From: Escherichia phage vb_EcoS_bov22_1
Strand: one strand, 5' to 3'
Sequence record: NC_073084.1
Length of the DNA: 44,612 nt
Each line of letters starts with the position of its first letter. Position 1 is the stretch's first letter. Shown one piece after another: positions 15,333 to 33,089 of the stretch. Under the pieces are notes generated by a model. It worked only from the letters and a program-made list of their open reading frames with translations, made no database searches and was not told the DNA's origin. The position numbers were made by a program, and so were the translations under genes.

Positions 15333-15851
15333 TTAATCTTCCAGTTCGAAATAGGTTTCGACGATTTCTTTTAACTCTGTGTGGAAGTCTTCGACGTCGT
15401 CATCTTCCAGCTTGGCGATTGATTTGATCTCGAACGATTCCAGCAGGTCGTCGAATTCGTCGTTCGCGTCGTCGTCATCACCCCCGGCAATAATAGCGGC
15501 ATACTGTTTGATCTCGTCGCGCATCTCTGCCAGCGGATCGGCATCTTTCTTACCTTTGCCTTTCGCCGGGGCTTTTTTACCCTTCGCAGGTTTTTCGTCT
15601 TCGGCTTCTTCATCGTCGTCATCTTCTACGACTTCTTTTTTGGACTTACCTTTCGCCGGGGCTTTTTTAGATTTAGCCGGTTTTTCGTCTTCGGCTTCAT
15701 CGTCGCCATCTTCGACAACTTCTTTTTTCGCCTTAGACGGCTTCTTGTCTTCCTGTTTACCAACGGCAGCGCCAACGGTTTCATAATGCTTTGCAATGGT
15801 TTCCAGTGCTACTACGCCGCGAGTGATCAGGTTTACGATTTGCTCAAACAT
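15333..15851 (-). CDS. highly acidic protein with Lys-rich tandem repeats; first gene of the leftward early operon (candidate host-takeover or DNA-mimic protein)
   Basis: ATG 15851 with GGAGATATACC RBS (upstream part of the track ORF has no RBS); two ~30-aa repeats KKEVVEDxDDEAEDEKPAKxKKAPAKGKxKK; acidic C-terminus. Confidence 0.65.
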   Translation of the reverse strand: MFEQIVNLITRGVVALETIAKHYETVGAAVGKQEDKKPSKAKKEVVEDGDDEAEDEKPAKSKKAPAKGKSKKEVVEDDDDEEAEDEKPAKGKKAPAKGKGKKDADPLAEMRDEIKQYAAIIAGGDDDDANDEFDDLLESFEIKSIAKLEDDDVEDFHTELKEIVETYFELED

Positions 15852-16088
15852 GGTATATCTCCGATTGGTTAAGTTTAGGTGTCGGCAGTTAACTTCGTCG
15901 GTGGCCTTAACATATTGCCAGGTTACGCGTTCTCCCGTTCGGGTAGTGGACCTGGTTATATAATCACGGTTGGGAATCCTGACACTTCGATCCGGCCCCT
16001 GCGTTGCCCCTCTCCAGTTTGCGTCCTGCATCCTGTCGACGGGGTGAATAATAGATTGGTTGCAGGATGGGTGTCAACAACTAATTTC

Positions 16089-16254: not shown

Positions 16255-16584
16255 ATGAATGTAAACGACGCAATCGAAATGTTAACGAAGACTGTTTGCA
16301 GTGAGACAAGCCGGTCATGGGCATACACCGATGCCGTAGGGGCTGTGTTATTTGAAATCGAACGACTGCGCAGTATCGAAAAAGAATTGCGCGCCAGGCT
16401 GGAACTACTCAACGGTACAGCAGCAAGCAAGCTGCAAAAACACAATGAAGAAATGGAAGAATACAAAAAGCAGGTTATCCGTTTGCGCGCCGAGGGCAAA
16501 TCCTGGGCGATGATTGCTGAGTTGACCGGAATTAATCAGAGCACAGTTCGCTCCTGGGTACGCAATAATAAAACTTCTAAGTAA
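16255..16584 (+). CDS. helix-turn-helix DNA-binding protein (putative transcriptional regulator)
   Basis: 109 aa; C-terminal SWAMIAELTGINQSTVRSWV HTH; N-terminal coiled coil; first gene of the rightward block. Confidence 0.65.
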   Translation: MNVNDAIEMLTKTVCSETSRSWAYTDAVGAVLFEIERLRSIEKELRARLELLNGTAASKLQKHNEEMEEYKKQVIRLRAEGKSWAMIAELTGINQSTVRSWVRNNKTSK

Positions 16585-19126: not shown

Positions 19127-19282
19127 AAATCCGGGGATTGCAAAACACACGGCAGCATGATGCGAAGTGCGGTCGCGGATGAACTAGGCAACCAATGCTA
19201 GTAGCATTATGCTGAGTGAAAAATGCGGTTTGCAGTTGCAGCAGATAGCGATCAACTTTTTCATGCGCGTTATTAATATTGG

Positions 19283-19311
19283 TTGCATCCGCCCAGGCAC
19301 CCTGCTATATT
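19283..19311 (+). promoter_or_regulatory. sigma70-like promoter with paired TTGGTTGCA motifs
   Basis: TTGCAT-17 nt-TATATT, then GGTTGCACACCAACAGGAGG and ATG 19339; the 22-mer TATATTGGTTGCACACCAACAG recurs on the minus strand at 30323-30344. Confidence 0.45.
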
Positions 19312-19338
19312 GGTTGCACACCAACAGGAGGGCGGAAC

Positions 19339-19518
19339 ATGAAAACCGAAATGGTTAATAAGCGCGAAATCAAGATCGGCGATACGGTAGTCCACAACGG
19401 GGAGCTTCGCACTGTGTGCAAGCGAGCGTTTAGCATCGATGGATTTATGGGCCTGCTACTTTGGGGCGACAGCTATCGTTTAGGGCATAAACTGGTTGAG
19501 AGGGTTACGGAACTATGA
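19339..19518 (+). CDS. small hypothetical protein
   Basis: 59 aa from ATG 19339 with AGGAGG RBS. Confidence 0.55.
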   Translation: MKTEMVNKREIKIGDTVVHNGELRTVCKRAFSIDGFMGLLLWGDSYRLGHKLVERVTEL

Positions 19519-21282: not shown

Positions 21283-21573
21283 ATGGATAAGCTAAACGAG
21301 TGGTTATTTGCCATCGCATGTCTGGCTGGCGGCTTCGTAGGCGCACGCATTCATGGTGAGGCTACGAAGGGGCCGCTAAACTTTGTTTTGTATGTTGTAG
21401 TTGGCTTCCTGTGTGCCATATTTGGCGCACCGGCTATCGCTGAGTGGGCTGGTTTGTCGGGTGAGCGCACTGTCGCCGGTTTAGGCTTCGTAACCGCGAT
21501 CTTCTGGATGCCAATCGCCGACCGGATCAGGGAGACTATTGCGTCGTTCCGACTTCCGGGGGGTGCAAAATGA
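21283..21573 (+). CDS. holin-like membrane protein (three predicted TM helices)
   Basis: 96 aa, three hydrophobic helices; upstream of the endolysin; no recognisable SD. Confidence 0.55.
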   Translation: MDKLNEWLFAIACLAGGFVGARIHGEATKGPLNFVLYVVVGFLCAIFGAPAIAEWAGLSGERTVAGLGFVTAIFWMPIADRIRETIASFRLPGGAK

Positions 21574-21815
21574 TTATCTCCGTCCTGTTGTTTGTTATCA
21601 TCGGGGCTTCGTCCCTGTTTAACGTGTATGCGCCGTCCGTCCGGGATGGCATTTTCGGTCGGGTGCTGTATCTGTTAACGGCAATGGTCTGTGTTATCGG
21701 ATTGTTGCAAACAGGAGACGTATCTGATACCACCTGGACCGCGTTAATCTGGCTGTTTGCATTGCGCACGCTGCGTAATGCTGTTTTGAATGGGGTAAAA
21801 CATGCGATTCAGTGA
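21570..21815 (+). CDS. second holin/antiholin-like membrane protein (two TM helices)
   Basis: 81 aa; GGGGTG RBS; ATGA coupling. Confidence 0.5.
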   Translation: MIISVLLFVIIGASSLFNVYAPSVRDGIFGRVLYLLTAMVCVIGLLQTGDVSDTTWTALIWLFALRTLRNAVLNGVKHAIQ

Positions 21816-22293
21816 CAACGGTCTGAGATTTACGGCAGCATGGGAGCAATTCAGCCCAGTGCCGTATTTCGCGACTAAGAAAGAGCAGGCCCGCGGCCTG
21901 TATACCTGGGGCTATGGTCACACCGGCACTAATCCGCCGCGGAGCATTACCCGTGCGGAGGCACTGGAGCTACTCAAGCGCGATGTGGTGTATGCCGAGA
22001 ACTGGGTGAACAAGTACGCGCATAAGAGCATTAACCAGGCGCAATTCGACGCGCTGGTGGACCTGGTTATCAATGCAGGTCAAGGTCCGATCGTACCGGA
22101 TGACGTCGCGAATGATTTCGATGATGCGGTCCGCCTGGGCGACTGGGCTAAGGTACGTGCTACTCTGCCGCAGTTCCGCAAGCAAGGTGGCGAAGTGCTT
22201 AAGGGTCTGGTGCGCCGTGCAATCGGCAGACAGGCGTTGTTTGATGGTAAGCAGTGGGACGTTGCCGAGAAAATCGGGCGTAACGCAGCATAA
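21802..22293 (+). CDS. endolysin (lysozyme, glycoside hydrolase family 24-like)
   Basis: AAWEQF ... GLYTWGYGHTG region resembles the T4-lysozyme-type catalytic core; directly follows the holin-like genes. Confidence 0.75.
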   Translation: MRFSDNGLRFTAAWEQFSPVPYFATKKEQARGLYTWGYGHTGTNPPRSITRAEALELLKRDVVYAENWVNKYAHKSINQAQFDALVDLVINAGQGPIVPDDVANDFDDAVRLGDWAKVRATLPQFRKQGGEVLKGLVRRAIGRQALFDGKQWDVAEKIGRNAA

Positions 22294-24182: not shown

Positions 24183-24734
24183 ATGGCAGAAATCAAAGTT
24201 AAGGGCCGACGCGCCAAACTGGACGGACGAGTAGCAGTAACCCCGCGCCGTAAACCAGGCGAGCAAACCGAGCATACCAATCTCGGACCTGAAATCGAGT
24301 ACGGAAAGCGCCGTAAAGGCGGCAAATGTGGACGCCCTACTGACTACCGATCCGTTTACTGCGACCAGCTTCGCCGCTATTTTGCCGACGCCGACGCCTG
24401 GCAGGTAAACTACTCCGATAAAGGCGCTGCGCAAGTAATCCCCCGCAACAAAATGCCAACCTTCGGTCGATTTGCCGCGGAAATCGGCGTGGGCGTAGCT
24501 TGCCTGTATCGCTGGGCGCGTGCGCATGAGGAGTTCGCCGAGGCGATGGCTGACGCTATGGAGCTACAAAAAACCTTCCTGATGGAAGCTGGCGGCGTAA
24601 CCATCGCGGCGGGCTTCGCTACGTTCCTGCTTAAAGCAAACCACGGCGTCCGCGACGATGTACCGCTGGATGACGACGAAGATGATAACGGCGACGTAGT
24701 TGTCGAACCTTCCGGCAAAGGTCAGGGTGAATAA
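24183..24734 (+). CDS. terS: terminase small subunit
   Basis: MPTFGRFAAEIGVGVACLYRWARAHEEFAEA HTH typical of small terminase subunits; acidic C-terminus; start at ATG 24183 (AAGGG RBS) not the track start 24084. Confidence 0.7.
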   Translation: MAEIKVKGRRAKLDGRVAVTPRRKPGEQTEHTNLGPEIEYGKRRKGGKCGRPTDYRSVYCDQLRRYFADADAWQVNYSDKGAAQVIPRNKMPTFGRFAAEIGVGVACLYRWARAHEEFAEAMADAMELQKTFLMEAGGVTIAAGFATFLLKANHGVRDDVPLDDDEDDNGDVVVEPSGKGQGE

Positions 24735-26119
24735 TGCGTAACTATGCGGCAGAACACCGCGCACTGGAACGCGCGATCGCAAAGCGTAACCTACCGCCAC
24801 GCCCGACACGCGTTGCGCAGGCCGTCCGCCTTTACCAGCCAGATTGCCTTCCGCACCAGGTCGAACTGCTGCGTGACACGAAGACTAAAATCCTCGGCCT
24901 GTGTTCCGGCTTCGGTGGTGGGAAGTCATGGGTCGCAGCCCGTAAGGTAATCCAGCTTTTAACACTGAACCCTGGTCATGATGGCATCGTAACAGAACCG
25001 ACTATTCCACTCCTGGTTAAAATCATGTACCCGGAATTGGAAAAGGCATTCGACGAGGCGGGCTTCAGGTGGAAGTTCAATAAGCAGGACAAGATCTATA
25101 ACGTGCTTGTGAAAGGCAAATGGACCCGCGTTATTTGCGAGTCAATGGAGAACTACACACGTCTTATCGGTGTTAACGCCGCGTGGATTGTTGCCGACGA
25201 GTTCGACACCACGAAGCAAGACGTTGCAATGGCGGCGTATCACAAATTGCTCGGTCGTCTGCGTGCGGGCTTGGTACGCCAGTTCGTCATCGTGTCCACC
25301 CCGGAAGGCTACCGGGCGATGTACCAGATTTTCGAAGTGGAGAAGGACAGCCAGAAACGTTTGATCCGGGCGAAGACCACGGACAACCACCATTTACCGG
25401 CGGACTTTATAGACACGCTGCGCAGTCAGTACCCAGCTAACCTGATCGACGCGTACCTGAACGGCCTGTTTGTTAACCTTACGTCGGGCGCGGTGTACAA
25501 GATGTTCAACCGCGAGGAGAACGCCAGCACCGAAGAAGTGCAGCCGGACGACACACTGATTATCGGTATGGACTTTAACGTCACGAAAATGGCGGCGGTT
25601 GTGTATGTCAGACGGCAGCGCGTCACCGAAAACAAGGAGTTCCGCGACGAGATTCACGCGGTGGATGAATTTGTGGACCTGTTTGACACCCCGGCTATGA
25701 TTGAGGCGATCGAGGAGCGCTACCCGGAACATTGTGCCGCCGGTAGGGTCGTCGTTTACCCGGATAGCAGCGGCAAATCCCGCAAGACGGTCAACGCGTC
25801 GTCGTCCGATATCGCACAACTGGAAGACGCTGGCTTCGAGGTGGAGTATGACAGCGTTAACCCGCCTGTGAAAGACCGACTGATCGCGATGAATACGATG
25901 ATGTGCAACTCGAAGGGCGTGCGCCAGTATTTTGTCAACCTGGATAAATGCCCTACACTAGCGAAATGTCTGGAACAGCAGGTGTACGACCTGAAGAAAG
26001 GCGAACCGGATAAAACGGCCGGGGTGGACCACATGAATGATGCAGCGGGCTATCCAATTGCGCACCTGTTCCCAGTGATTCGTCCGATCGCCGTTGTTCC
26101 AACTGTAGACTTCTACTAA
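24734..26119 (+). CDS. terL: terminase large subunit
   Basis: Walker A GFGGGKS, Walker B IVADEFD; 461 aa; directly follows terS. Confidence 0.85.
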   Translation: MRNYAAEHRALERAIAKRNLPPRPTRVAQAVRLYQPDCLPHQVELLRDTKTKILGLCSGFGGGKSWVAARKVIQLLTLNPGHDGIVTEPTIPLLVKIMYPELEKAFDEAGFRWKFNKQDKIYNVLVKGKWTRVICESMENYTRLIGVNAAWIVADEFDTTKQDVAMAAYHKLLGRLRAGLVRQFVIVSTPEGYRAMYQIFEVEKDSQKRLIRAKTTDNHHLPADFIDTLRSQYPANLIDAYLNGLFVNLTSGAVYKMFNREENASTEEVQPDDTLIIGMDFNVTKMAAVVYVRRQRVTENKEFRDEIHAVDEFVDLFDTPAMIEAIEERYPEHCAAGRVVVYPDSSGKSRKTVNASSSDIAQLEDAGFEVEYDSVNPPVKDRLIAMNTMMCNSKGVRQYFVNLDKCPTLAKCLEQQVYDLKKGEPDKTAGVDHMNDAAGYPIAHLFPVIRPIAVVPTVDFY

Positions 26120-26129
26120 GGAAACGACC

Positions 26130-27650
26130 ATGACCGTTAACGTTGACAACCAGCACCCGCTCTATGCGCGCATTGCGCCAGAGTGGAAGATGATCCGCGA
26201 TTGTGTAGCAGGGGAGCGCGCCGTGAAGGCGTGCGGCCCTTTGTACCTGCCTCATCCCGCCAGTGGCGACAATACTGACCCGAAAGCACGGGCGCGGTAT
26301 AAGGCGTACAAGCAACGCGCGGTATTCCTGAACGCCACCGCCCGCACACTAAACGCGCTGTTAGGCGTCGCCTTTGCAAAACCTGTAAGTCTGGACCTTT
26401 CCGGGGTGATGGCTGACCTGATTGACGACGTAGACGGCAGCGGTATGCCATTGCCGCAACTTCTGCGCGGTGCTATGTCGGAAGTTCTGCAATCGGGACG
26501 CGCGGGCTTTATGGTGGACTACGACCGCCAGGCTAACTTTGATGAACTGGGTAACGTAGTGCCACAGACAGCCGCCGAGATGGCGGCACACCGACCGCTT
26601 ATCCGCCTGTATACGGCAGAGCAGATCATCAACTGGCGGCAGACCCACGGCGTCGATACGCTAATTGTGCTGAAGGAAACGGACGAAATCAGCACCGAAG
26701 ACCCTGACGATTTCGCAAACCACGAAGTAACAATCTGGACCGAGCTTCGCATGATTGACGGCAAGGCACACGCCCGCCGCTGGTTTTACAACGCGGACAC
26801 GTCCGAAGTGAAGATGGACTTGCCGCGAGGCTTCACCAGAACCGATCTTGTGCCGTTGGTGGATGCTTCCGGTAATGCGCTTACGCAACTACCGTTTTGC
26901 TGGTGCGGTGCGGTGGACAACAACGCAACGCCTGACGCCGCTCCGCTGGCGGATATCGCATCCATCAACATTAAGCACTACAACGCCGAAGCGGACGTCG
27001 CCGAGATCGCGCACATCGTGGGTCAGCCTACCCTGGTTGCGACGGGCTTGACTCAATCATGGGCTGACAAGAACCTGAAGGGAGGCATTGCCCTCGGTGC
27101 GACTAAGGGCGTTATCCTGGGCCAGAACATGGACGCTAAACTGATCCAGGCGGAGGAGCGCAACTTGTCGGTTGCACTGTGTGAGCGTCGCGAATTGCAA
27201 ATGGCTAAACTTGGCGCGGCCCTGGTCGAGAAGGGGACCGCACCTAAGACGGCAACCGAGGCGGCCTACGATGCGCAGACTGATAACAGTATCCTGTCGC
27301 TTATTGCCGGTAACGTTGAGAAGGCTTTCAACCGTGCGCTGCAAATCGTCCAACTCTTCACCGGTGACACCGCCGACCAGCGTGTGACGCTGAATAAGTT
27401 CTACACCGAGATCACGGTTGATGCGCAGCTTATGACCGCGATGATGTCGGGTGTGCAGACGGGTACGGTCCGCCTGGCTGATTTCATCAAGTGGATGATG
27501 GCGCAGGGTGTCATCGACGACTCGCAAACCGTCGAGCAGGTTGAAGACGAATTGCGGAATCAGAATCCATTGCCTCAAATGTCCCCTGATGCGGTAGAAT
27601 CTACCGAAGAAGACCCGGACAAGGTAGCGGACAATGGCGAAGACAATTAA
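26130..27650 (+). CDS. portal protein
   Basis: 506 aa immediately after terL, AAGGAAA RBS; acidic C-terminus; call rests on position and size. Confidence 0.7.
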   Translation: MTVNVDNQHPLYARIAPEWKMIRDCVAGERAVKACGPLYLPHPASGDNTDPKARARYKAYKQRAVFLNATARTLNALLGVAFAKPVSLDLSGVMADLIDDVDGSGMPLPQLLRGAMSEVLQSGRAGFMVDYDRQANFDELGNVVPQTAAEMAAHRPLIRLYTAEQIINWRQTHGVDTLIVLKETDEISTEDPDDFANHEVTIWTELRMIDGKAHARRWFYNADTSEVKMDLPRGFTRTDLVPLVDASGNALTQLPFCWCGAVDNNATPDAAPLADIASINIKHYNAEADVAEIAHIVGQPTLVATGLTQSWADKNLKGGIALGATKGVILGQNMDAKLIQAEERNLSVALCERRELQMAKLGAALVEKGTAPKTATEAAYDAQTDNSILSLIAGNVEKAFNRALQIVQLFTGDTADQRVTLNKFYTEITVDAQLMTAMMSGVQTGTVRLADFIKWMMAQGVIDDSQTVEQVEDELRNQNPLPQMSPDAVESTEEDPDKVADNGEDN

Positions 27651-28737
27651 TCAACATTTGGCGGATCGAATGATTCGCCGTCACATCTTCACCCAGCGCC
27701 TGAGCAATGATCAGGCGCGGAGGGTGCTGGCTATGTGGGAGAAGTTCCGGCCCACTTTACTTGGTAAGCTGACCGAGTTACTTGATGGCAAAAAGTCCAT
27801 GAGCAACAAGGCACTTACCACACTGTTAACTCAACTCGACAAGACCGTCAAAACGGAACTACGCGCCGAGTTTAAAGTGCTGGCGGAGAGCCTTCAGGAG
27901 TTCGCCGACGCCGAGGCTAATTATCTAGCAGACACACTAACGGCAGCGATCCAGCCCGCTGTCGCCGTACCGGCTGTTGAAGTAGTTGGCGTTGTTACCG
28001 GCGCGCAGATTGCAGCGACGGCAATGAAAAACCCGTTCCAGGGTAATACTATGATGCAATGGCCTGATTCCCTTTCCGAGTGGACCAGGACGCAGATCGG
28101 CAATCAGGTGCGCGCCGGATTCATCCAGGGAAAGCCAACGATGGAAATTATCGCGGACGTGAGGCGCGCGCTAGGCGGTCGTAGTGCGCAAGCCATCTCA
28201 AGCGTTGTTAAGTCCGCAGTCAACCACTATGCGGCGACCGCCCGCGAACTAATGGTAAAAGCAAATGACGATATTCTCGAAGGTCGCCAATGGTTATCTA
28301 CATTGGACACGCATACTTCTCCCATGTGCCAGCTACGCGATCGCCTGTTTTATCCGGTTGATGTTACTCCCGATACGAAAGGGAAGCGCGGCGGGAAAGT
28401 GGTGGCTGGATCACAATATGGCGCTGGTCCGGGCAAGCTACATTATTGCTGCCGTTCGACGGAGACGTGGAAAGTCAAAGGTATGGAAGATTGGCCCAGT
28501 GGTAAGCGTCCGGCACTGAAGGCTGACGCAGGCAGATTGCTGAGTGAGCAGGTAGACGCGCAGACTGATTTCTTCTCATGGGTGCAGCGCCAGCCGCGCC
28601 ATATCCTGGAAGAATTATATGGAGTGCAACGCGCCGACCAGATTATGCGCGGCGTGAAAGTGCCGAAGATGTTCACCGATTCTGGTGAACTGATGACTAT
28701 TGCACAGCTTAAAAACCGGGGGTTATGGCGTGATTAA
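27634..28737 (+). CDS. head morphogenesis protein (Mu F / SPP1 gp7-like minor head protein)
   Basis: LDTHTSPMCQ ... HYCCRS Cys motifs typical of the family; position after portal. Confidence 0.7.
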   Translation: MAKTINQHLADRMIRRHIFTQRLSNDQARRVLAMWEKFRPTLLGKLTELLDGKKSMSNKALTTLLTQLDKTVKTELRAEFKVLAESLQEFADAEANYLADTLTAAIQPAVAVPAVEVVGVVTGAQIAATAMKNPFQGNTMMQWPDSLSEWTRTQIGNQVRAGFIQGKPTMEIIADVRRALGGRSAQAISSVVKSAVNHYAATARELMVKANDDILEGRQWLSTLDTHTSPMCQLRDRLFYPVDVTPDTKGKRGGKVVAGSQYGAGPGKLHYCCRSTETWKVKGMEDWPSGKRPALKADAGRLLSEQVDAQTDFFSWVQRQPRHILEELYGVQRADQIMRGVKVPKMFTDSGELMTIAQLKNRGLWRD

Positions 28738-29059
28738 ATATGCAGCGATTGGGCTGGTTATCGGTCTGGCGGTAGGATTCTGGCTAGGTGACTCCTATCG
28801 CGCGGGCGTAGTGGCGGAGGCAGCGCAAGAAGCGCAAGCCCAAGCCCAACGGCAGCAAACTAAAGTTGTTGAGCGCTCCGTGCAGGCAGAACAAGCCCGC
28901 GACGTAGAATACCGGACTATCACGAAAGAGGTTGTTAAATATGTTACGCGCCCTAACCGCCCTGATTGTAGTTTTGATGCTGAGCGCGTGCGGATCAAGC
29001 AACGCGCCGTTGATGCCGCTAACGGAGTCGGCGCTGCGACCGCCGTGCAAGTTCGATAA
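28730..29059 (+). CDS. i-spanin (Rz-like)
   Basis: GTG start 28730; N-terminal TM helix IKYAAIGLVIGLAVGFW, Ala/Gln-rich periplasmic coiled region, C-terminal Cys; contains the overlapping lipoprotein gene in another frame. Confidence 0.55.
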   Translation: MIKYAAIGLVIGLAVGFWLGDSYRAGVVAEAAQEAQAQAQRQQTKVVERSVQAEQARDVEYRTITKEVVKYVTRPNRPDCSFDAERVRIKQRAVDAANGVGAATAVQVR

Positions 29060-29171
29060 CCCGTCCGCGGACCCCGACGAAGATTTGATGATTGACGTGA
29101 AAAATATGGAATGCGGGGCGAAGCTAAGGGCGCAGGTGCTGGAGTTGCAGCAAATAATTAAGGGGCCGTAA
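28941..29171 (+). CDS. o-spanin (Rz1-like lipoprotein)
   Basis: ATG 28941 with AAGAGG RBS; lipobox LMLSAC; Pro-rich mature region; embedded in the 3' part of the i-spanin gene. Confidence 0.6.
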   Translation: MLRALTALIVVLMLSACGSSNAPLMPLTESALRPPCKFDNPSADPDEDLMIDVKNMECGAKLRAQVLELQQIIKGP

Positions 29172-29184
29172 TGGCCCCTTTTTC
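29161..29184. terminator. bidirectional rho-independent terminator
   Basis: aggggccgtaatggcccct plus T-run, lying between convergent genes (ends 29171 and 29186). Confidence 0.6.
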
Positions 29185-29185
29185 G

Positions 29186-29950
29186 TTAGCGCGGAATGCC
29201 GCAAATCTCGTTAAGTGTCTTCACATCCAGCGCCACTGCCGTGGATTTTGGCTTGTCCGGGTACGGGATGAATTGCTCGACTTCAGGCCATGCCTTAATC
29301 AGCTTCTTGTCAGTATTGTGCAGGTCCAGCACACCGGTAACGGTCAACTTGAATGCGTCATACTTCGCACGCAATTCGCGGCGGGCCTGGTCGTTACGGT
29401 CCAGGCGCTTACAGAAGTCATGGTCCGCAGGGTAATCTGCGCGACCGCGAGGGAGATATATCGGCAGCGCTTTCCCGTCCTCGTCCACTTCGCACACTGA
29501 CGCGAGCATAACTGTCTCGAACCCCGGAACGATATCGCCGAGATCAGGCGCGAGCTTATTCATATATTTCTCTTCCCAGTATCCGCGATGTACGCGGTAT
29601 CGGCGACCGTCACCGCTCAAGGACAAGGTGCGAACATTTCCGCCTGCGTTGATTTCGAAAGTGGCGTCGTAAACGCTGCCGATACCTTTCGGGCGGTCGG
29701 TGTTATAACTATATGTCGCCTTGTTGGTGTATACACAGACGCCGTACATCTGCGACTGGTCGTCGCGAATTGCCTTGATATGCTCGCGGAGCGCTGCGAA
29801 CGTGCGAATGCCTTCCGGCATACAGTCCAGCGTTATTGCGTACGCCAGATCGCGTGAGTCCATCATGATTTGTTTGGCTTCGGTTGCGATTTCGTGGTCG
29901 CGCAGGATGTTAGATAGGATCTGATTTTTAATGTCTTTTGTCAGTCTCAT
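29186..29950 (-). CDS. hypothetical protein, reverse-oriented cassette gene 2
   Basis: 254 aa; GAGGA RBS 8 nt upstream of ATG 29950; no recognisable motifs. Confidence 0.6.
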   Translation of the reverse strand: MRLTKDIKNQILSNILRDHEIATEAKQIMMDSRDLAYAITLDCMPEGIRTFAALREHIKAIRDDQSQMYGVCVYTNKATYSYNTDRPKGIGSVYDATFEINAGGNVRTLSLSGDGRRYRVHRGYWEEKYMNKLAPDLGDIVPGFETVMLASVCEVDEDGKALPIYLPRGRADYPADHDFCKRLDRNDQARRELRAKYDAFKLTVTGVLDLHNTDKKLIKAWPEVEQFIPYPDKPKSTAVALDVKTLNEICGIPR

Positions 29951-29989
29951 TTTTGTGTCCTCATTATTGGGGCTTTCGCCCCGATTGGT

Positions 29990-30304
29990 TTAGTTAAATT
30001 TGATGTTGCCGCCGGTTGAGGTTAAGCGAGCACATACAGATTCAACGGCATCGACGCACATGAAATCGTTAAAGGCTTCGACCAGGGCGTTTATGAAAGA
30101 TGCCGGAACCAGGCCGCAAGCCGGATTATCGAATGTCGCGGAGTTGACCGCCGCTTTTGCCGCTTCAGAAGCATTCATGCTCTGGCACAGATTCAGCGCT
30201 TCCGCGTTACGCATTGCGTGAAAGGTAAAGGTATTCGCTACGGTAGCTTTATTGAAACGGGCCATTGCGGCGTCTACTGGAGTTGCTACGGTCATGTTAG
30301 TCAT
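29990..30304 (-). CDS. hypothetical protein, reverse-oriented cassette gene 1
   Basis: 104 aa from ATG 30304 with AAGGAAAA RBS (the track ORF extends to 30364 without an RBS). Confidence 0.55.
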   Translation of the reverse strand: MTNMTVATPVDAAMARFNKATVANTFTFHAMRNAEALNLCQSMNASEAAKAAVNSATFDNPACGLVPASFINALVEAFNDFMCVDAVESVCARLTSTGGNIKFN

Positions 30305-30339
30305 TTTGTTTTCCTTCATATCTCTGTTGGTGTGCAACC

Positions 30340-30369
30340 AATATACTGCAACCAACATCCGCAATGCAA
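30340..30369 (-). promoter_or_regulatory. sigma70-like promoter (minus strand) for the reverse cassette
   Basis: Minus strand TTGCAT-18 nt-TATATTGGTTGCACACCAACAG, matching the promoter at 19283. Confidence 0.4.
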
Positions 30370-30376
30370 GCGAATT

Positions 30377-30404
30377 TTGCGATTATTTTTATCGCTGATA
30401 ATAT
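30377..30404 (+). promoter_or_regulatory. candidate divergent promoter for the scaffold/capsid genes
   Basis: TTGCGA-16 nt-TAATAT; followed by hairpin agcgggtggcccgctt in the leader. Confidence 0.3.
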
Positions 30405-30458
30405 TAAGGCGTGAAGTCAAGCGGGTGGCCCGCTTTGCCACAATCCCAGGGGGATAGC

Positions 30459-31160
30459 ATGAAACTTACTAAAGCAGAATATGACGCGTTGCCAGACGGT
30501 ATGAAGGCGCTTTTTGTTGCCGATGGCGACGGGTATAAATCAACTTTCATGACCGCAGAAGAAGTACAGGCGGAAATTAAGGGTCTGAAAGACAATAACG
30601 CGAAGCTGGTGATCGAGAAGAAAGCAGAAGCTGAACGCCGCGCCGAAGCCGAGTGCCTTGCGAAAGAGAAAGAGGAAGCCGCCGCGCGCAAGAATGGCGA
30701 CCTCGAAGCGATCGATAAGTCCTGGAAGGATAAGTTTGCGAAACACGAAGCAGACACATCGGGAAAAATCGAAGCCTACCGCAAGCAGATCCACGACCTA
30801 ACCATCGGCAGCGCTGCCAAAGACCTGGCGTCGAAGCTGTTCGGTAAGAATGCGGGCATCATGCAACGCCACGTAATGGATCGCCTGACGCTGGAAGACG
30901 GCGAAGACGGCAGCTTGAAAGTGCGTGTCTTGCAGGATGGCAAACCGTCCGCGCTGACTATGGAAGAGCTTGAAAAAGAGTTCCGTAATAACGCCGATTT
31001 CGCATCCGTCCTGGCTGGCACGCCAGCAGGCGGCGCTCCTAGCAAACCGACGCAGGTTGTCGAAGATGTGAAGTCTAAAATTACGATGGGCCATAGCTTC
31101 GGTATCACCGATCTCACCAAACAGGCCGGGGATATCATCGCTAAAATGGGCGACGAGTAA
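30459..31160 (+). CDS. head scaffolding protein
   Basis: ATG 30459 with AGGGGGA RBS; Ala/Glu/Lys-rich coiled-coil composition; immediately upstream of the major capsid gene. Confidence 0.6.
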   Translation: MKLTKAEYDALPDGMKALFVADGDGYKSTFMTAEEVQAEIKGLKDNNAKLVIEKKAEAERRAEAECLAKEKEEAAARKNGDLEAIDKSWKDKFAKHEADTSGKIEAYRKQIHDLTIGSAAKDLASKLFGKNAGIMQRHVMDRLTLEDGEDGSLKVRVLQDGKPSALTMEELEKEFRNNADFASVLAGTPAGGAPSKPTQVVEDVKSKITMGHSFGITDLTKQAGDIIAKMGDE

Positions 31161-31257: not shown

Positions 31258-32358
31258 ATGTCTTTAACAGTGTTCCAGCGTAAACTCGTTACCGCGGTTA
31301 CGCAAATGATCCCCGACAACCTGAACGTTTTCAACGCCGCCGCCAATGGCGCTGTTGTTCTCGGTACTGGTGAAGTGCTGAAGGACGTTATTGAGAAAAT
31401 GTCCGTAGGCTTGATCGCTAACCTCGTTACCGACCGTAACGCCTACGCCCCCGTCGGCACTCCGGCGACCGCGAAAGTGCTGGCGCGTATGCTAACCAAC
31501 TCGGTTAACCTTTCTGCAAAAGTGGGTCCGGTAGCAATCACTAAGGCTATGATGGCTAAGATCGAAACCAACGTTAACAGCGTTGCGGCTGAGATTGCGG
31601 CACAGGCTACTCAAGCGATTATGCTGCACTACCTGAAAGCTGGTATCGGCGCAAGTAAAGCGGCGATCGAAAGCAACGCAGCGGCAAAATACACCCAACC
31701 GGCGCGCGTTGACGGCGTTGGCGGTCGTACCTTCCCGACCCTGGCAGACTTCCCGCTGGCGGCTTCTAAGTTCGGCGATCAGGCGTCTTTGATTAAGTCT
31801 TGGTTTATGGACGGCGTTACCTGGGCAAACTTCATTGCGTACCAGGCACTCCCTTCCGCTGAACAGGTATTCGCAATTGGCGATCTCCAGGTAATGGGTG
31901 ATGGCCTGGGCCGTCGCTTCATTATCTCCGATGCCGCTGCCGATGCTATTGGCGCTGGTAACATGCTGGGTCTGGTCCCTGGCGCGGTTGCAGTTACGAC
32001 CAACGGCCTCGACATGCTGGCGCAGGAAAAAGGCGGCAACGAGAACATTGAGCGCTGGTGGCAGGGTGAGTTCGACTTCAACGTGGCTGTTAAAGGCTAC
32101 CGTCTGAAGGCGTCCGCTCGTACCCCGATCGAAGGTGTACGCTCGTTCAAACTGGACGATATCACCACTTCCGATAACTGGGAACTGGATCAGGGCCAGG
32201 TAGACAACGCACCGGCAACCGTGCAGGATGTTGGCGCTGTGGGCGATGGCGATACTAAAGGCCGTCGTAAGACCCAGGCCGCACAGGCAGTGCCTACCCG
32301 CCACATCAAGGAAACCGCTGGCGTACTGGTTACGCTGACTGCGACTACCGCGTCTTAA
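31258..32358 (+). CDS. major capsid protein
   Basis: 366 aa, AAAGGA RBS, followed by a strong terminator; position after the scaffold gene. Confidence 0.75.
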   Translation: MSLTVFQRKLVTAVTQMIPDNLNVFNAAANGAVVLGTGEVLKDVIEKMSVGLIANLVTDRNAYAPVGTPATAKVLARMLTNSVNLSAKVGPVAITKAMMAKIETNVNSVAAEIAAQATQAIMLHYLKAGIGASKAAIESNAAAKYTQPARVDGVGGRTFPTLADFPLAASKFGDQASLIKSWFMDGVTWANFIAYQALPSAEQVFAIGDLQVMGDGLGRRFIISDAAADAIGAGNMLGLVPGAVAVTTNGLDMLAQEKGGNENIERWWQGEFDFNVAVKGYRLKASARTPIEGVRSFKLDDITTSDNWELDQGQVDNAPATVQDVGAVGDGDTKGRRKTQAAQAVPTRHIKETAGVLVTLTATTAS

Positions 32359-32416: not shown

Positions 32417-32917
32417 ATGTATGGCGACCCGCAAACCTTTGTTATTTATGCCGCTGCGCGAGGCGTTGAAATTACGCCGAGCGACGCAACGCGACACCTT
32501 ACTATCGTTAATGACTTCCTTAACGGCATAGACTGGATCGGCGAACAAGCAGACCCGACCGGAATTGACGCATGGCCCCGCGTCAACTACCCGTCAGACG
32601 GTAAGCCGGTGCGAAACACGCTTACTGAAGATTTGGCAGTAGTTCCCGCGGGGCAGATTGTAGACTTCGCATCAATCCCTGTCGCCGTTGAGCAAGCCGT
32701 TTACCGGCTGGCAATGTTGGTGGCTGACGAGGTCGATATTTCTCCTGTTGGCAGTGGTAAGGAGACTATCCGCGAGACTGTTGGCCCGATCACGATGGAA
32801 TATGACCCCGCGACGATTGGTAGCGGCGTCTCGTTCCCGTGGTGGGATGGCTTGCTGGGCCACTGGGTGAACGTAGACGGCAACGCAGCGGGTAATTTTG
32901 ACGTATTCCGGGGGTGA
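32417..32917 (+). CDS. head completion / head-tail connector protein (putative)
   Basis: 166 aa from ATG 32417 with TAGGAG RBS; call by position only. Confidence 0.45.
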   Translation: MYGDPQTFVIYAAARGVEITPSDATRHLTIVNDFLNGIDWIGEQADPTGIDAWPRVNYPSDGKPVRNTLTEDLAVVPAGQIVDFASIPVAVEQAVYRLAMLVADEVDISPVGSGKETIRETVGPITMEYDPATIGSGVSFPWWDGLLGHWVNVDGNAAGNFDVFRG

Positions 32918-32918
32918 T

Positions 32919-33089
32919 ATGAATCCTGCATTACTGGCGGCTATTATCGCCGCAAATACTAAGCACCAACCAGAACCAGAGCCGGAACCAGAACCAGAGC
33001 CGGAACCAGAGCCGGAACCAGAACCAGAGCCGGAACCAGAACCAGAGCCGGAGCCACCGGTACAGGAGGATGCTAATGGCGGGCTTTAA
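32919..33089 (+). CDS. small protein with (Pro-Glu)n dipeptide repeat
   Basis: ATG 32919 with GGGGGTGA RBS; MNPALLAAIIAANTKHQ followed by about 17 PE repeats; overlaps the next gene start. Confidence 0.45.
   Translation: MNPALLAAIIAANTKHQPEPEPEPEPEPEPEPEPEPEPEPEPEPEPPVQEDANGGL
32968..33056 (+). repeat. tandem hexanucleotide-type repeat (ccagaa/ccagag/ccggaa units) encoding the PE tract
   Basis: Direct reading: gaaccagagccggaaccagaaccagagccg repeated. Confidence 0.7.

Follow-up and report, generated by a model that had tools for sequence, protein, structure and literature searches.

What are two genes transcribed against the direction of a late operon doing in the head region of a virulent phage? 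The stretch analysed here, 44,612 nucleotides of Escherichia phage vb_EcoS_bov22_1 (NC_073084.1; this whole stretch is the window), comes from a Dhillonvirus. Between its spanin and scaffold genes it carries two minus-strand open reading frames (ORFs), one encoding 254 aa at 29186-29950 and one encoding 104 aa at 29990-30304. An initial annotation, made from the letters alone, described them as an accessory two-gene cassette with its own promoter and terminator, whose proteins showed no recognisable motif. We find that the interval is a variable slot, that the two genes occur independently of each other, and that the larger one encodes a full-length member of the Nmad5 family. On balance, though by no wide measure, we think it probable as a whole explanation that the interval is a cargo slot furnished with a promoter and a terminator, that its two genes were acquired independently, and that Nmad5 is a non-catalytic binding protein.

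The synteny comparison proposed in the initial annotation revealed the slot. In the Dhillonvirus records compared, the o-spanin-to-scaffold interval carries minus-strand cargo whose contents differ, with at least six slot states between flanks that are 95-100% identical. Nmad5 and the small gene occur together in this window, SSL-2009a, and SM_A8, while Nmad5 stands alone in Oekolampad and many others, where the locus is ~360 bp shorter. A 171-aa beta-clamp-like gene accompanies both in CHD5UKE2 and is the only cargo in TheodorHerzl and AV129. HK578 carries an unrelated ORF (140 aa as annotated, ~135 aa from the likely start), SM_S24 a frameshifted 184-aa Nmad5, and Teewinot a 38-codon Nmad5 remnant left by a near-complete deletion. 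Over 28600-30700, Escherichia phages vB_EcoS_bov16_1 and bov15_1 match the window at 100% identity, bov11C2 and bov25_1D hardly differ from it, and ~150 further Dhillonvirus records are 85-96% identical.

The beta-clamp-like cargo (TheodorHerzl bas14_0007, 172 aa; also in CHD5UKE2 and AV129) is itself a homologue of domain II of the bacterial beta sliding clamp (residues ~140-260), with E values of 2e-7 in a phmmer search of PDB and 2e-5 for TIGR00663; the RusA-like label given to it in PHROGs is wrong. An 8.8-kb metagenomic contig encodes an in-frame fusion of small-protein residues 1-46 to the last 41 residues of Nmad5 (TDKKL...CGIPR), another sign that the contents of the slot decay and turn over. 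Two phage-encoded triggers of defence systems, Ksap1 (the KpAvs2 trigger) and the RAZR trigger of SECphi18, were considered as occupants of this site, and both map elsewhere.

Nmad5 and the small gene do not form one functional cassette, as had been proposed at the outset. By tblastn, 145 phage records contain full-length Nmad5 (counted at >=80% of the query) and 70 the small gene, and about half of the Nmad5-carrying Dhillonviruses are without the small gene. Outside this genus, three phage groups have homologues of the small gene with 58-72% identity: Pantoea Dibbivirus AAM37, Ackermannviridae of ~150 kb, and a metagenomic phage of 47 kb. All these homologues have early genes or genes of nucleotide metabolism around them, and Nmad5 is absent from the flanks examined. 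When gene presence was compared between the window, two complete genomes that have Nmad5, and four that lack it, Nmad5 itself was the only gene tracking the Nmad5 pattern; no co-varying phage-encoded gene was evident in this small genome sample. The 47-kb contig (Logan, SRR23967305), whose small-gene homologue is the 72% identical one, also encodes an adenylosuccinate-synthetase-like protein (PF00709) and an HD phosphohydrolase beside PolA, a combination that recalls the PurZ/DatZ diaminopurine (Z-genome) phages.

In the window, the small gene with its ribosome-binding site (RBS) and 3' hairpin forms a ~365-bp module between the leader (...CACCAACA) and the nmad5 RBS (GAGGACACAAAAATG). The hairpin, GGGGC-GAAA-GCCCC with a GAAA tetraloop, occupies 29966-29985 (core 29969-29982) on the minus strand, directly 3' of the small gene's stop codon. 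Folding (dG -11.5 kcal/mol, z -3.1) agrees with its original description as lying between the genes, and it has no U-tract. A junction alignment finds it missing from Nmad5-only phages. In four unrelated genomic contexts a GC-rich tetraloop hairpin lies within ~15 nt of the small gene's stop, each with a different stem sequence, which indicates that the hairpin travels with the gene. It could serve as an mRNA 3'-end or stability element, or mark the module boundary.

The small protein (PHROG 24635) is acidic (pI 5.1) and predicted to be helical. Here the initial verdict of no recognisable motif was sound: searches of Pfam, PADLOC, and NCBIfam returned nothing, and a profile search of PDB gave only spurious or sub-threshold matches. 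An exhaustive search of 1.84 billion representatives with a profile hidden Markov model (HMM) yielded four clusters of relatives, of which one, a eukaryotic FN3-repeat protein, is spurious. A zinc site formed by H29, C63, C83, and C91 was considered and dropped, as C83 varies in more distant homologues.

Both ORFs are genes and not chance reading frames, given their homologues and the purifying selection on each (median dN/dS 0.12 for nmad5 and 0.09 for the small gene); the initial annotation was right in calling them. Non-synonymous change is nonetheless 2-4 times faster than in the scaffold, capsid, and head-morphogenesis genes, for which dN/dS is 0.03-0.05. The larger ORF starts with ATG, with GAGGA 7 nt upstream, and cannot be extended upstream in frame; the smaller starts with ATG behind AAGGA and has alternative longer starts at 30319 (109 aa, the choice of some GenBank depositors) or 30364. 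The cargo ORF of HK578, otherwise unrelated, shares with the small gene an identical MKENKM (ATGAAGGAAAACAA) leader and diverges after it. The common stretch is therefore the leader and RBS region of the slot, which makes the 104-aa start likelier than the 109-aa start.

The 254-aa protein does carry a recognisable domain, contrary to what was first stated. It matches Pfam PF18757, "Nucleotide modification associated domain 5", with 204.6 bits against a cut-off of 27 (E 2.3e-60), over residues 1-253 and profile positions 1-206 of 206, and it also matches PHROG 1965 (E 5.6e-62). The gene is already named Nmad5 in some GenBank records, such as those of BF9 and SECphi18. The family signature consists of an N-terminal M-R-L-T helix and a C-terminal T-x-x-[K/R]-L-x-x-x-W-P-E ... 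L-N, and the window protein carries both. In an alignment of 18 diverse sequences L217, W221, and P222 are invariant, R2, L3, P229, L246, and N247 are at least 90% conserved, and K216, which is present in the window protein inside the C-terminal signature, is K or R in 15. The near-invariant positions are mainly G, P, L, and A, and the family alignment contains no conserved acid/histidine catalytic set. PADLOC and NCBIfam scans of Nmad5 gave no matches, a PDB sequence search with its profile gave only spurious or sub-threshold matches and no solved fold relative, and a search of BFVD recovered other Nmad5 proteins only; no enzyme-like fold was recognised. An Rfam scan of 28900-30600 found nothing.

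Elsewhere Nmad5 keeps company with replication and recombination genes. In a sister clade (PolA 66% and TerL 69% identical) it lies between a divergent primase-helicase and a DUF2800 nuclease-SSB-PolA operon; in another lineage it follows DUF2800-PolA; and in Yuavirus LKO4 it is beside a thymidylate-synthase-like gene, with PolA a few genes further downstream. In mEp235, a lambdoid temperate phage, N/Nun is immediately followed in the PL operon by a full-length Nmad5 gene (E 4e-72), after which come cIII, kil, and the recombination genes; Stx-converting phages have C-terminal Nmad5 matches at unannotated positions. A pattern-based scan of genome contigs, of limited sensitivity, yielded four loci only, one of them near-identical to mEp235 gp37. 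The signature is kept across phages of E. coli, Pseudomonas, Bordetella, and Vibrio. These neighbourhoods indicate that Nmad5 is an early-type gene whose Dhillonvirus copy looks relocated. A 232-aa ORF of the window at 15333-16031 (-) was tried as a diverged Nmad5 and rejected, as it encodes a highly acidic KPAK/EDE-repeat protein (PHROG 3127). This repeat protein, at 15333-15851 (-), heads the leftward early operon, occupies the Nmad5 position of related phages, and varies in length among Dhillonviruses.

The gene, its dispensability, its toxicity, and its link to the Tmn defence are already published. Yamashita et al. (2025, Commun Biol, PMC11846954) described mutants of the Dhillonviruses SM_A8 and SM_S22 (the latter with anti-Tmn deleted) that escape the Tmn KAP-NTPase defence, and the escape mutations are Nmad5 K216E in SM_A8 and, at the corresponding residue of the SM_S22 protein, K296E. 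Tmn sensitivity returns when the mutation is reverted, and its introduction gives escape; deletion of nmad5 is tolerated and leaves the phage Tmn-sensitive; and cloning of nmad5 failed, apparently owing to its toxicity (PMC11846954). SM_A8 is 92.7% identical to the 2.1-kb region of the window over its full length (97% in the small gene) and has the same two-gene arrangement. The anti-Tmn gene is ORF35 of SM_S22, which is Tmn-resistant, and SM_A8 has no anti-Tmn and is Tmn-sensitive (PMC11846954). We considered the slot genes as anti-Tmn and rejected the idea: both are carried by Tmn-sensitive SM_A8, so that the small gene, like Nmad5, is not anti-Tmn, a separation made by distribution and not by sequence comparison with ORF35.

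Transcription of the slot ends at a bidirectional intrinsic terminator at 29160-29180, recognised on both strands by hairpin scan and folding (dG -18.9 and -16 kcal/mol, z -2.9 and -2.3). As the initial annotation had it, this element serves both directions: the corresponding site of the HK578 record is annotated as a terminator on both strands, and the hairpin, whose loop contains the Rz1 stop codon, closes the rightward terminase-portal-head-morphogenesis-spanin unit as well as the leftward cargo unit.

The promoter proposed for the slot stands in part. The candidate leftward sigma-70 promoter, TTGCAT-18-TATATT at 30340-30369 on the minus strand, matches the consensus at 8/12 positions; a consensus scan with a threshold of 9/12 called no minus-strand promoter at 30340-30369 and only a single plus-strand site in the region, where 2.5 were expected. 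Conservation speaks for the candidate. The control region from ~30324 to the scaffold start is near-identical whatever the cargo in an alignment of 7 phages representing six cargo variants, and the -10 TATATT and the TTGC of the -35 are kept in all seven. Moreover, the 22 nt TATATTGGTTGCACACCAACAG that comprise the -10 and leader (30345 to 30324) recur exactly at 19306-19327 in the early region, ahead of a small rightward gene that lies downstream of the primase-helicase, and the promoter hexamers equal those of TTGCAT-17-TATATT promoters at 19282 (+) and 6584 (-). We take the repeat and the conservation together as pointing to a genuine leftward promoter, wired to the same regulon as the early-region promoters. 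The published bov25_1D transcriptome covers host genes only. The small gene behind the early-region copy of the repeat (19339-19518, +; PHROG 3623) is patchy too: the window, TheodorHerzl, HK578, and AV129 have it, and SSL-2009a, Oekolampad, and Teewinot do not.

Two tandem copies of the 9-mer TTGGTTGCA occupy 30333-30341 and 30347-30355 on the minus strand (region 30324-30355), in the promoter spacer immediately upstream of the -10 and start site and overlapping their end. The 9-mer has 12 exact occurrences in the window against 0.34 expected, with sites at 1796, 4657/4670, 6567/6584, 9514/9526, 13145/13161, 16056, 18872/18907, 19279/19310, 20038, 22519/22542, and 30333/30347. The sites are mostly paired, 12-35 bp apart, and mostly in intergenic or promoter-like positions of the replication and early half of the genome, to which all pairs except 30333/30347 are confined. 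Several pairs fall within TTGC-type -35 and TATATT-like -10 arrangements, and several form TTGCAT-17-TATATT promoters. By its distribution, TTGGTTGCA is probably an operator or promoter element of a phage regulon, and the helix-turn-helix protein encoded at 16255-16584 is a candidate for the factor that binds it.

Since the upstream unit terminates at 29160-29180, the scaffold and head genes need a promoter near 30377-30404, and a putative one, TTGCGA-16-TAATAT (8/12), can be read there on the plus strand, in a region kept in all slot variants aligned. Between this candidate and the scaffold RBS lies a conserved GC-rich hairpin, AGCGGG-TGG-CCCGCT (30420-30436), which shows compensatory-looking changes among Dhillonviruses and may be a leader or attenuator of the head operon.

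According to the explanation we favour, a divergent control region at ~30324-30458 would fire leftward into whatever accessory ORFs precede the terminator at 29160-29180. Nmad5, a dispensable accessory gene of early type, would have been relocated into the head region and kept under a promoter and operator of the early-region type, and the small gene, a ~365-bp module bringing its own RBS and 3' tetraloop hairpin, would have been inserted between the promoter leader and the nmad5 RBS. The Nmad5 protein would bind a conserved partner related to DNA metabolism or immunity through the conserved C-terminal surface T-x-x-K216-L-x-x-x-W-P-E ... L-N. Such binding would explain both the toxicity in E. 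coli and the change in the outcome of Tmn, a KAP NTPase, upon charge reversal by K216E; the place of K216 inside the sharpest family signature would fit an interaction surface.

The family name suggests another function. If Nmad5 were a DNA base-modification enzyme or an essential cofactor of one, as the Pfam name and the Yamashita paper imply, Tmn would sense modified DNA, and a missense change in Nmad5 would be expected to alter Tmn sensitivity, as it does. Nmad5 was in fact named for its association with base-hypermodification clusters, and in M6-like and Yuavirus phages it is found beside aGPT-Pplase, kinase, rSAM, and PLP genes (PMC9476957). We regard this reading as improbable. The 5-NedU pathway of M6 was studied through reconstitution in vitro with gp51-gp55, and Nmad5 is unmentioned in that paper (PMC8989533). 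Three complete Dhillonvirus genomes encode Dam- and Dcm-type methyltransferases only, with no hydroxymethylase, 5-hmdU DNA kinase, aGPT-Pplase, or glycosyl or amino-acid transferase annotated in them (by annotation and Pfam scans of selected ORFs), and Dhillonviruses are restriction-sensitive relative to the 7-deazaguanine-modified Queuovirinae (BASEL study, PMC8594841). The occurrence of the family in lambdoid temperate mEp235 and, as C-terminal matches, in Stx phages also speaks against a modification enzyme, as do its lack of a conserved catalytic residue set or enzyme-like fold and the continued effectiveness of Tmn against the nmad5 deletion. The modification label is thus unsupported, and the evidence runs against it. 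Less probable still is an obligate pair, toxin-antitoxin-like or an effector with its chaperone, in which the small acidic protein neutralises a toxic Nmad5. A small acidic ORF upstream of a larger protein reported to be toxic, in one transcription unit and with a spacing of 39 nt, has the look of such a pair, but an obligate partner would not be missing from about half of the Nmad5-carrying Dhillonviruses, nor would it occur alone in three unrelated phage groups; the small-gene homologue is never beside Nmad5 in the other lineages examined, and the junctions are those of a simple ~365-bp module insertion.

Position between the head-morphogenesis and scaffold genes is the only point suggesting that the two proteins are head-assembly or structural components, and this reading is effectively refuted. 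The slot genes lie on the opposite strand and have their own terminator, the engineered deletion of nmad5 is viable (PMC11846954), and Nmad5 homologues elsewhere lie among early genes or genes of replication. Some natural phages lack both genes (TheodorHerzl, HK578, AV129, and Teewinot), and the 24 phage proteins of the EE09 lysate proteome include none of ~29 kDa or ~254 aa. The initial description of the genes as accessory, non-structural cargo therefore holds, given the viable deletion and the relatives in which the site has different cargo, a shortened Nmad5, or next to nothing. The main alternative to an early non-catalytic effector is a dedicated anti-defence role of one or both genes, which we rate as a real but minority possibility. 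Wild-type Nmad5 would then block another defence allele, K216E would retarget it to the plasmid-borne Tmn, and the small gene would inhibit another system. This reading accommodates the patchy distribution within a variable slot, the faster evolution of the slot proteins relative to the neighbouring head genes, and the spread of the small gene over unrelated phages of Enterobacterales; K216E also behaves like a gain of function, the deletion being without effect, and anti-Tmn homologues are likewise allele-specific in activity (PMC11846954). On the other hand, a signature conserved across phages of four host genera is more in line with a conserved target than with a fast-evolving immune protein, the consistent position of Nmad5 within replication modules suggests a role in DNA metabolism, and the presence of the small gene in Tmn-sensitive SM_A8 sets it apart from anti-Tmn. 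The slot proteins match no PADLOC model, which says little, as PADLOC holds defence and not anti-defence families.

Several points weigh against a cargo slot carrying a non-catalytic Nmad5. Early timing, use of the promoter, action by binding and not by catalysis, and the kind of partner bound are features that we infer. The non-catalytic mode is argued from an absent motif and an absent fold match, and the central beta region of the Nmad5 model is of low confidence. The small protein offers no functional clue, and its AlphaFold2 (AF2) model (pLDDT 46) is too poor for a fold search. The leftward promoter falls below the consensus threshold, and the TTGGTTGCA pair beside it could instead, or additionally, act on the rightward scaffold promoter. 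The Tmn genetics, in which K216E escapes and deletion does not, fit several models. We also entertain, as a rather unlikely conjunction, a joint reading in which Nmad5 is a mis-named and widespread early effector whose K-L-x-x-x-W-P-E surface would bind a conserved host replication or repair component or a sensor of the KAP-NTPase type. The slot would then be a backbone "socket" that swaps replisome-directed cargo (Nmad5 and the beta-clamp domain II fragment), and a hitherto undescribed TTGGTTGCA operator regulon would shut the leftward cargo promoter and turn on the rightward head-gene promoter.

The gene order of the window places the slot between the spanin and scaffold genes, where the initial annotation had put it. 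The terminase large subunit (24734-26119), portal (26130-27650), head-morphogenesis protein (27634-28737), Rz spanin (28700-29059), and Rz1 o-spanin (28932-29171) precede it, and the scaffold (30459-31160) and major capsid protein (31258-32358) follow. The Rz and Rz1 genes (28700-29171) end the packaging and head-morphogenesis transcription unit and are ~6.4 kb from the endolysin gene (21802-22293); the holin genes are directly upstream of the endolysin in a lysis region at 21283-22293, placed by synteny with SSL-2009a. Further downstream, an ORF at 32898-33089 between the head-tail adaptor and head-closure genes encodes a (Pro-Glu)n tract of ~22 PE repeats at 32968-33056, formed by a 6/12/18-nt tandem repeat; the SSL-2009a homologue of this gene is just 117 nt.

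With the modification label unsupported, the annotation of Nmad5 is in need of correction, and the published Tmn-escape result is to be read differently. The slot is also a natural payload site with a probable backbone promoter and a terminator, in a genus already engineered for therapy, and it tolerates cargo from almost nothing (Teewinot) to three stacked genes that together span ~1.7 kb (CHD5UKE2). A compact testable set emerges: a widespread early protein family with a sharp signature and one residue whose change alters the phenotype, an orphan gene that moves along with its 3' hairpin, and what is probably a regulon motif.

Among known relatives, the closest are the SM_A8 nmad5 (CDS7) and its SM_S22 homologue, which are the same gene in the same position beside the scaffold gene, with 254 aa and K216 alike in SM_A8. 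The Tmn genetics concern SM_A8 and SM_S22, whereas the window phage is bov16_1-like and known here from its sequence. The Yamashita paper took Nmad5 to be a DNA-modification enzyme and says nothing of the slot and its other cargo, of the small gene, or of the control elements (PMC11846954). More distant members of PF18757/PHROG 1965 (mEp235 gp37, LKO4 gp18, and C130_2 gp11) have the same full-length HMM match, M-R-L-T helix, and C-terminal signature. They differ in context, the genes elsewhere being co-oriented within early, replication, or PL operons and the Dhillonvirus copy lying in the late region on the opposite strand, and in sequence, the Dhillonvirus copy having a central insertion of ~22-25 residues.

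The slot as a whole recalls two kinds of genetic element. Type II toxin-antitoxin pairs resemble it in having a small acidic upstream ORF and a larger protein, here reported to be toxic, but the slot genes are not co-inherited, and obligate pairing does not hold for them. The better likeness is to the morons of lambdoid phages, a concept of the Hendrix group for added genes that sit within late operons and bring a promoter and a terminator of their own. Like these, the slot is polymorphic between close relatives, lies between conserved late genes, and has its own terminator and a probable promoter of its own; in two Dhillonvirus records the beta-clamp-like gene found here already bears the depositors' remark "possible moron". 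Unlike morons, however, the slot belongs to virulent phages, in which there is no lysogen for moron expression; its candidate promoter is part of the conserved backbone, a "socket", and not of the inserted gene; and several unrelated genes can stack in it.

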